This document shows, one piece after another, positions 59,394 to 60,212 of a stretch of DNA of 64,000 nucleotides. The notes below the pieces were generated by a model. That model was not told where the DNA came from, did not search any database, and worked only from the letters and a program-made list of their open reading frames with translations. Position 1 is the first letter of the stretch. Each line of letters opens with the position of its first letter. The translations under genes and the position numbers were made by a program. The stretch is from Octopus vulgaris (taxonomy: Eukaryota), in contig OX597818.1 in NCBI GenBank assembly GCA_951406725.2, forward strand, positions 116,622,001 to 116,686,000. The letters are read 5' to 3'.

Positions 59394-59476
59394 ATTATAA
59401 GCACCTGTGTATACCGTTTGGTGGTGTAGGTGGTGGAGTAAATTGATCAAAATAAAAACATGATGCGAAGGATTCA

Positions 59477-59554
59477 GCGGTACATATGTTTCGGGCCTTT
59501 ATTAGACAGATTTATAACAATGCATAATGTATGTCTGTGGCCTTCTTCAGCCGC
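59477..59554 (-). ncRNA. Minimal type-I hammerhead motif (mirror copy)
   Basis: Reverse complement of 59950-60027. Confidence 0.72.
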
Positions 59555-59949
59555 GCACAACAGCTTCCACAAGGACATGTGTTACATCAAAAATTCTTGG
59601 TTGGGGATGCAAATCCTCCCATTCGCGTACGACATAATGCGGCAGCAGCATAGAATTGAAGCGTCCATCTCTTTCTTCTCTCAATGTAGGATGAGGAAAG
59701 ATGGATGTTGAAGTAATGTAAATAAATAAATACATGTATATACGTGAAGATGGAGGGGACGTATATACATGTATTTATTTATTTACATTACTTCAACATC
59801 CATCTTTCCTCATCCTACATTGAGAGAAGAAAGAGATGGACGCTTCAATTCTATGCTGCTGCCGCATTATGTCGTACGCGAATGGGAGGATTTGCATCCC
59901 CAACCAAGAATTTTTGATGTAACACATGTCCTTGTGGAAGCTGTTGTGC

Positions 59950-60027
59950 GCGGCTGAAGAAGGCCACAGACATACATTATGCATTGTTATAAATCTGTCT
60001 AATAAAGGCCCGAAACATATGTACCGC
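59950..60027 (+). ncRNA. Minimal type-I hammerhead ribozyme motif
   Basis: gcgg-CTGAAGA-a-ggcc..ggcc-c-GAAA-catatg-TA-ccgc; helix I 4 bp, palindromic helix III ACATATGT, GUA triplet (predicted cut after 60023). Confidence 0.72.
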
Positions 60028-60212
60028 TGAATCCTTCGCATCATGTTTTTATTTTGATCAATTTATATATATATATATATATATATATTATATTATATAG
60101 ACATACGTGTATGCAAGATATATATATATATATATATATATATATATATATATATATATATATATATATATATATATATATATGTATATATATATATATA
60201 TAAATATATATA

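Follow-up and report, generated by a model that had tools for sequence, protein, structure and literature searches.

A palindrome with a hammerhead ribozyme motif on each strand lies between two (TA)n tracts in the window, the 64-kb stretch of octopus DNA analysed here, and raises the question of what kind of element it is and how its two arms came to face each other. An earlier note, made from the letters alone, had described it as a very young, non-coding, ribozyme-bearing derivative of a Penelope-like element (PLE) targeted to (TA)n. Our analysis indicates that the feature is almost certainly a PLE insertion. The overall explanation that we regard as highly probable is a 5'-truncated, head-to-head insertion of PLE 3' ends in (TA)n, probably begun at two priming sites.

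Anatomy of the palindrome and its parent family

An exact string test showed that two arms of 307 nt, 59439-59745 and 59759-60065, are 100% complementary with a 13-nt gap between them, and motif mapping placed one hammerhead on each strand, with both 3' ends facing outward into (TA)n (Table 1), as the earlier note had it. The 13 nt at the centre (59746-59758) had been taken for a spacer. The length was right, but the sequence is the reverse complement of family positions -319 to -307 and thus belongs to the minus arm as extra 5' sequence. The locus is therefore composed of a minus arm (-319 to +45/48) and a plus arm (-306 to 0), which meet head to head at a blunt junction with 0-nt overlap. 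The one-sided tail of the minus copy was also confirmed, as a partial family tail. It measures 45 nt (48 counting the TAT common to the microsatellite) and represents the first 45-48 of the ~68-70 nt of the family tail. The +45/48 end falls on a TA-rich spot of the tail, and the same short end was seen at L140 and L143 (3/5 pattern matches). Any target-site duplication would be hidden by the (TA)n flanks.

Table 1. Features of the palindrome (window coordinates)
Feature	Position	Strand	Basis
Left (TA)n target tract	59242..59393	.	repeat scan of window
Partial PLE tail, AC-rich, predicted weak stem-loop, tailed arm only	59394..59438	-	family comparison
Tailed arm: 5'-truncated element 3' end, family -319..0 of main 3' end	59439..59758	-	family alignment
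Type-I hammerhead motif, predicted cleavage after 59481	59477..59554	-	mirror of plus copy, C3 at 59550
Tail-less arm, family positions -306..0	59759..60065	+	exact arm comparison
Type-I hammerhead motif, predicted cleavage after 60023	59950..60027	+	folding and sister-family comparison
Helix I GCGG	59950..59953	+	
Core CUGAAGA, then A 59961	59954..59960	+	
Helix II GGCC / GGCCC	59962..59965 / 60007..60011	+	
AATAAA within helix II loop, 17 nt 5' of predicted cleavage site	60001..60006	+	
GAAA, then C-AUAU-G-U	60012..60015	+	
Cleavage-site A 60023, then CCGC	60024..60027	+	
Right (TA)n target tract	60064..60212	.	repeat scan of window

The arm belongs to a large repeat family. A 27-nt pattern of the hammerhead 3' half had 1,753 exact matches in the genome, whereas its reversed control had 0, and the best 40 of 1,442 scored arm matches were 98-100% identical. 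With a relaxed hammerhead pattern, 4 matches were obtained, two in this family and two in another. TA repeats follow 122/131 family 3' ends, which supports the proposed targeting to (TA)n. These ends fall into two classes, 0 and ~+68-70. In longer copies the arm ends a ~2-kb 3' region downstream of the RT-EN stop; it is thus the 3' end of a family coding for RT and GIY-YIG, in line with the PLE origin, the inverted pLTR ends and the linked upstream frame that the earlier note had proposed to look for. A partial tandem (pLTR) at L065 defined a unit of 4,684 bp, in which hammerhead and tail run into the 5' region and lie upstream of an ATG ~150 nt past the main 3' end. Open frames of 842-850 aa with DKT, YRDD and VIY..YIG were found in five copies (L150-L154), and the window arm shares 94-97% identity with their 3' ends. 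The copies closest to the arm (L048, L031 and L051; 99.7%) bear ORFs but are all 5'-truncated, L048 being stop-free from aa 145 to 842. The identity of the arms with each other and their closeness to these copies agree with a very young insertion. Judged from its sequence, the family is a young, abundant, protein-coding PLE (EN+) with intact RT-GIY-YIG frames.

The predicted protein contains DKT (IIPADKTGN), RWA, YRDD and the linker CNCRCASEC (CxCX5C). Its GIY-YIG domain has a single Cys between VIY and YIG, so that CxxC is lacking inside it; CCHH is absent, and CQLC (CxxC) and CIH (CxH) lie on the C-terminal side. These motifs would place the family in the Hydra clade, for which PMC8557442 describes a C-terminal GIY-YIG without CCHH, DKT, CxCX5C, CxxC and CxH flanking conserved E and N residues, a hammerhead and (TA)n insertion. 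The exceptions are RWA, where that account gives RWK (seven relatives that we aligned have RWK or RWR), and the size, the clade being described there as generally <3 kb and the octopus unit having 4,684 bp with its ~2-kb 3' region. The tail of ~70 nt also differs from the 30-40 nt given there as typical, and the long helix II loop holding AATAAA sets the family apart from Hydra-clade elements. The hammerhead sequence is unlike that listed for Hydra-1_Obim in PMC8557442, so the window family is another octopus family. The nearest named proteins were hypothetical mollusc proteins with 32-35% identity, one of them from Argonauta hians. RT was not called in a Pfam profile search of the protein, and GIY-YIG matched below the cut-off (E 0.069). 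Selenocysteine at the linker TGA of L032 was considered and rejected because TGA occurs in only 1/26 ORF copies checked.

Other arrangements were observed on the side. Further Hydra-type families with their own hammerheads, most with frames of 896-1091 aa, occur at L155-L160, L164, L165, L168 and L169, and one further Hydra-type family has a tail of ~115 nt. Locus L125 (G000:C1:57296983-57313310) holds three tail-less ends on one strand at ~8.1-kb spacing, probably a host tandem duplication. In L143:153-1520, a piece from within the ORF (-3779..-2925) is inverted and joined to a 3' end; it resembles an internal inversion and not two 3' ends.

The hammerhead motif in the window and in sister families

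In each arm the motif reads GCGG-CUGAAGA-A-GGCC-(41 nt)-GGCC-C-GAAA-CAUAUGU-A-CCGC, with ACAUAUGU as the helix III palindrome. When a trimmed 78-mer was folded, the hammerhead was the MFE structure. In fragments of 88-147 nt it was not, and the z-scores were not significant. An Rfam scan of 58000-61500 at E<=10, a search which the earlier note had proposed with Hammerhead_1 in mind, returned 58 matches, all sub-threshold miRNA-type hairpins and none of them a hammerhead family; the long helix II loop is the likely reason. The extension of helix II by acaga/tctgt, claimed in that note, proved weak: the AGACA/UGUCU stem has a pair probability of ~0.3, and its pairing is interrupted in an older subfamily.

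A protein search led to sister families (~50-70% identity in the N-terminal part), and a hammerhead was found in the equivalent place in them. Across 11 related rows, which represent ~2-4 independent lineages, the core was invariant as the helices covaried, the pattern that the earlier note had named as a check. Of 143 cells, 95.8% pair, compared with 24-38% in slid controls, and 8/13 pairs change on both sides. Two of four covariation measures were not significant in shuffle tests (274/500, 435/500). Compensatory changes keep helix III palindromic, or close to it (ACAUAUGU, ACGAUCGU, ACAAUUGU), which fits folding as a dimer and the dimer type assigned before. The self-duplex of the window helix III was predicted at -7.0 kcal/mol. 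Minimal type-I hammerheads described in PMC4209133 likewise combine a short helix I with a palindromic helix III suited to dimers; in PLEs, according to the same source, their monomers are inactive and their dimers weakly active.

Position 10.1-11.1 is the only pair that is often unpaired (5/11). It is A-C in the window, A-A in L165 and G-U, G-C or A-U elsewhere. The A-C pair at the start of helix II had raised doubts about activity. The register itself stands, but the doubt is lessened. Sister families tolerate mismatches at this position, and many published Hydra hammerheads are mismatched there, often with U-U (PMC8557442); the A-C mismatch is thus weak evidence against activity. The minimal form in PMC4209133 has an unpaired base followed by G10.1-C11.1, whereas the window motif has the A-C first pair, a 4-bp helix II and a long loop. 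The corresponding alternative register for the window, an unpaired A plus G10.1-C11.1, was rejected: its pair probability is ~0.01-0.02 and it fails in L165, the A-C register being conserved instead. The family hammerhead can probably cleave in some context, and cleavage is predicted only as a dimer via ACAUAUGU or with the help of the element's protein. For the PAc element, PMC11167929 reports a hammerhead that depended on protein and without which insertion in vitro still took place.

At 7/7 loci checked (window, L157, L159, L161, L165, L168 and L169), the loop of helix II contained AATAAA or ATTAAA 17-29 nt 5' of the cleavage site, compared with 7.9% of random 45-nt window slices. A U-rich tract follows this hexamer in the window and in sister loci. 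The hexamer is a possible candidate for a polyadenylation signal; the literature covered, which included few subscription papers, did not mention a poly(A) signal within a PLE hammerhead.

Tail asymmetry in outward-facing pairs

Head-to-head pairs are common in the family: 52 of the first 100 listed family 3' ends sit in 26 outward-facing pairs. Exactly one arm was tailed in 69/70 outward-facing pairs, which came mostly from contigs C1-C3 and from listings that admit a pair only when the hammerhead or 3' end of each arm is nearly intact, and are thus not a random sample. They comprise 49/49 fetched pairs, 18/19 pairs from the 3'-end listing, and L105 and L144. The exception, L145, is a genuine tail-less/tail-less pair. 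At p=0.5 the one-tail excess in the 49/49 and 18/19 pairs has P ~2e-19; among solo ends, 21/46 carry the tail. Locus L067, in which both copies are tailed but face inward and are not head to head, was kept out of the pair counts. The arm of L105 was too short for the first pair filter, and this locus was counted in the arm-length set instead. The same tail asymmetry was seen at the sister-family locus L156, and an unrelated repeat family had one tail in 7/7 pairs.

The layout as such is already in print, namely head-to-head pairs, one tail and hammerheads on opposite strands; the family member is new. A Hydra-clade precedent in PMC8557442 is Penelope-13_HM, for which an inverted copy truncated at its 5' end and hammerheads on both strands are listed, as at the window locus, and the dual motifs of S. 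mansoni, 100-700 bp apart on opposite strands (PMC4209133), resemble the window pair. Pen2a_Av and D. virilis Penelope likewise have a head-to-head inverted pLTR, with a tail optional on one inverted end (PMC3846280, PMC2377424); unlike in these elements, no coding sequence lies between the window arms, and the palindrome copy has no ORF. How PLEs come by head-to-head repeats and by tails on one side only is treated as an unsolved question in PMC8557442, PMC3846280 and PMC11167929. For the one-tail rule, qualitative statements but neither a count nor a model were found in the literature covered (few subscription papers).

Arm lengths were compared at 44 clean junctions, 3/47 pairs with a junction gap >80 nt having been left out. 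The longer arm was tailed in 24, tail-less in 19 and neither in 1 pair of equal arms, and the tail-less arm was longer by up to 4 kb (L049, L055, L074 and L122). The 5' ends of both arms lay within 25 nt of each other in 16/44 pairs (4.0 expected by permutation), and near-equal arms persisted without the hotspot described below (8/36 vs 1.7 expected). Junction overlaps were mostly 0-8 nt, and the junctions differed between loci. A hotspot of 5' ends near family position -254 (window ~59811 on the plus and ~59693 on the minus strand) accounts for 18/88 ends and lies beside an imperfect hairpin; it could be a transcription start at which cDNAs run off. Internal tandem duplications of 63 nt and 99 nt (L079:1150-1450 and L080:1195-1395) start at this hotspot and are mirrored in both arms.

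Sequence variants showed that both arms derive from one source lineage, with 179 common variants concordant and 16 discordant between arms; 12 variants were private yet shared and 71 were arm-specific. In L014 and L113, an inverted piece of the tail alone, 25-29 nt long, faces a tail-less copy. Because this partner copy is tail-less, the inverted piece was not copied from it.

A second, sequence-unrelated head-to-head palindrome was observed at window 60213-60409, 150 bp away. A Hydra-type hammerhead is represented in its ~55-nt arms by the 3' half (GAAACTCAGAGTAACAG). A ~75-nt tail is present on one arm only, and 7/7 pairs of its family are one-tailed. The repeat family has at least 81 genome matches on both strands; three solo copies begin at an identical base, and the core is CCGAUGA, with C in place of U4. 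No ORF turned up in the vicinity of four solo copies. This family is possibly a minimal non-autonomous PLE satellite.

Origin of the head-to-head arrangement

As for how the pairs arise, we lean towards a reading in which the two cut target strands prime the RNA of the same source element at different sites. The GIY-YIG domain would cut both strands of (TA)n. One 3'-OH would start RT at position 0, the main end. The other would do so at the end of the tail, which is normally +70 and at the window locus would be the minor TA-rich site at +45/48. Both cDNAs would stop early, here at -306 and -319, and the truncated cDNAs would then be joined head to head by end joining, with the hammerhead as a passenger of the pLTR. 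The PAc Poseidon element described in PMC11167929 provides a biochemical parallel: two 3' ends bound an AC-rich tail, the target is AT-rich, the pLTR holds a hammerhead, and the protein, which cleaves each target strand and extends it, begins RT at two sites, one on either side of the tail. A counterpoint comes from the same source, in which PAc in vitro had no strand difference in the RT start site; PAc belongs to another clade and its start sites are without strand bias, whereas the octopus genomic pairs have almost strictly one of each.

The most serious alternative is that the first cDNA was copied into the second arm by snap-back or self-priming, or that the arms were homogenised by gene conversion, the second target end giving a short primed piece. 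Self-priming has been proposed for PLE palindromes (PMC3846280), and the near-equal arms, the 12 private shared variants and the mirrored duplications of L079 and L080 fit fold-back copying and two-site priming equally. At the window locus, the rare C59 is shared by both arms, unlike the other copies among the best 40 matches. Against fold-back copying, the tail-less arm is the longer one in 19/44 pairs, by up to 4 kb, which excludes fold-back from the tailed strand first as the only route. Moreover, the tail-only pieces of L014 and L113 need RNA-templated priming of their own, the window junction has 0 nt of microhomology, and the one-tail rule would still demand two priming sites. We consider this explanation rather unlikely.

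A dedicated non-autonomous palindromic element that bears the ribozyme and spreads as a unit, retrozyme- or SINE-like, would accord with the earlier idea of a non-coding derivative. Short non-coding products are indeed common, both arms being <600 nt in 25/44 pairs and 18/88 ends lying at -254. But the C59 pattern had 3 genomic matches: two are the window arms, and the third lies in a C8 palindrome whose junction is different. The exact window structure is single-copy, and we therefore regard it as a one-off and not as a spreading unit. The junctions vary from locus to locus, and an arm 99.7% identical to ORF-bearing copies marks an ordinary truncation product of the coding family. Non-LTR retrozymes, as presented in bioRxiv 10.64898/2026.07.22.740005, are also non-coding and derived from PLE pLTRs with a type-I hammerhead, but they are same-strand tandem repeats, whereas the window locus is an inverted pair with one hammerhead on each strand and no tandem array. 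The dedicated-element reading is thus largely refuted at this locus and very improbable overall.

A functional dsRNA element of the host, in which the ribozyme is masked or the duplex serves as an ADAR or Dicer substrate, is just as improbable. The physical part of this proposal stands: an RNA that reads through the palindrome would form a >300-bp hairpin (~-590 kcal/mol), and small RNAs from PLEs have been reported in a rotifer (PMC3846280). A supporting host gene was not recognised, however, when the 16 ORFs of at least 130 aa in the 64-kb window were inspected by eye, and the insertion is too young to carry a sign of selection. An internal promoter is known, besides inverted terminal repeats, for D. 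virilis Penelope (PMC2377424), and a pLTR promoter of this type would send transcription outward, so that no hairpin would form. A fold-back artefact of assembly, which the 100% identity of the arms might suggest, can be practically dismissed, since the symmetry ends at the known 3' ends of the family, the flanks past the TA tracts share one 28-nt match in 2 kb, the tail asymmetry obeys the 69/70 rule, and dozens of loci have an equal layout with non-identical arms. Among the contig pieces listed from four public runs over 59384-59800, none crossed the junction; 4,399 further pieces lay outside that listing, and the result speaks neither for nor against the artefact.

Two-site priming remains the reading that we favour, and the near-strict one-tail rule together with the tail-only pieces constrains the mechanism by which PLE palindromes form. 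With no coding capacity and a single sense hammerhead on each strand, the window copy is in all likelihood an inert dead end. The locus itself is an ordinary transposon copy of this kind, and its value lies in the family and its asymmetry. For cleavage assays, the family provides a natural series of covarying hammerheads of the dimer type. More tentatively, an asymmetric RT-endonuclease complex might prime the two strands at opposite edges of the tail stem-loop of one RNA, and a poly(A) signal embedded in helix II might couple ribozyme folding to the choice of 3' end. If true, such a complex would account for the tail being on one side only, for the variants common to both arms and for the matching of arm lengths.
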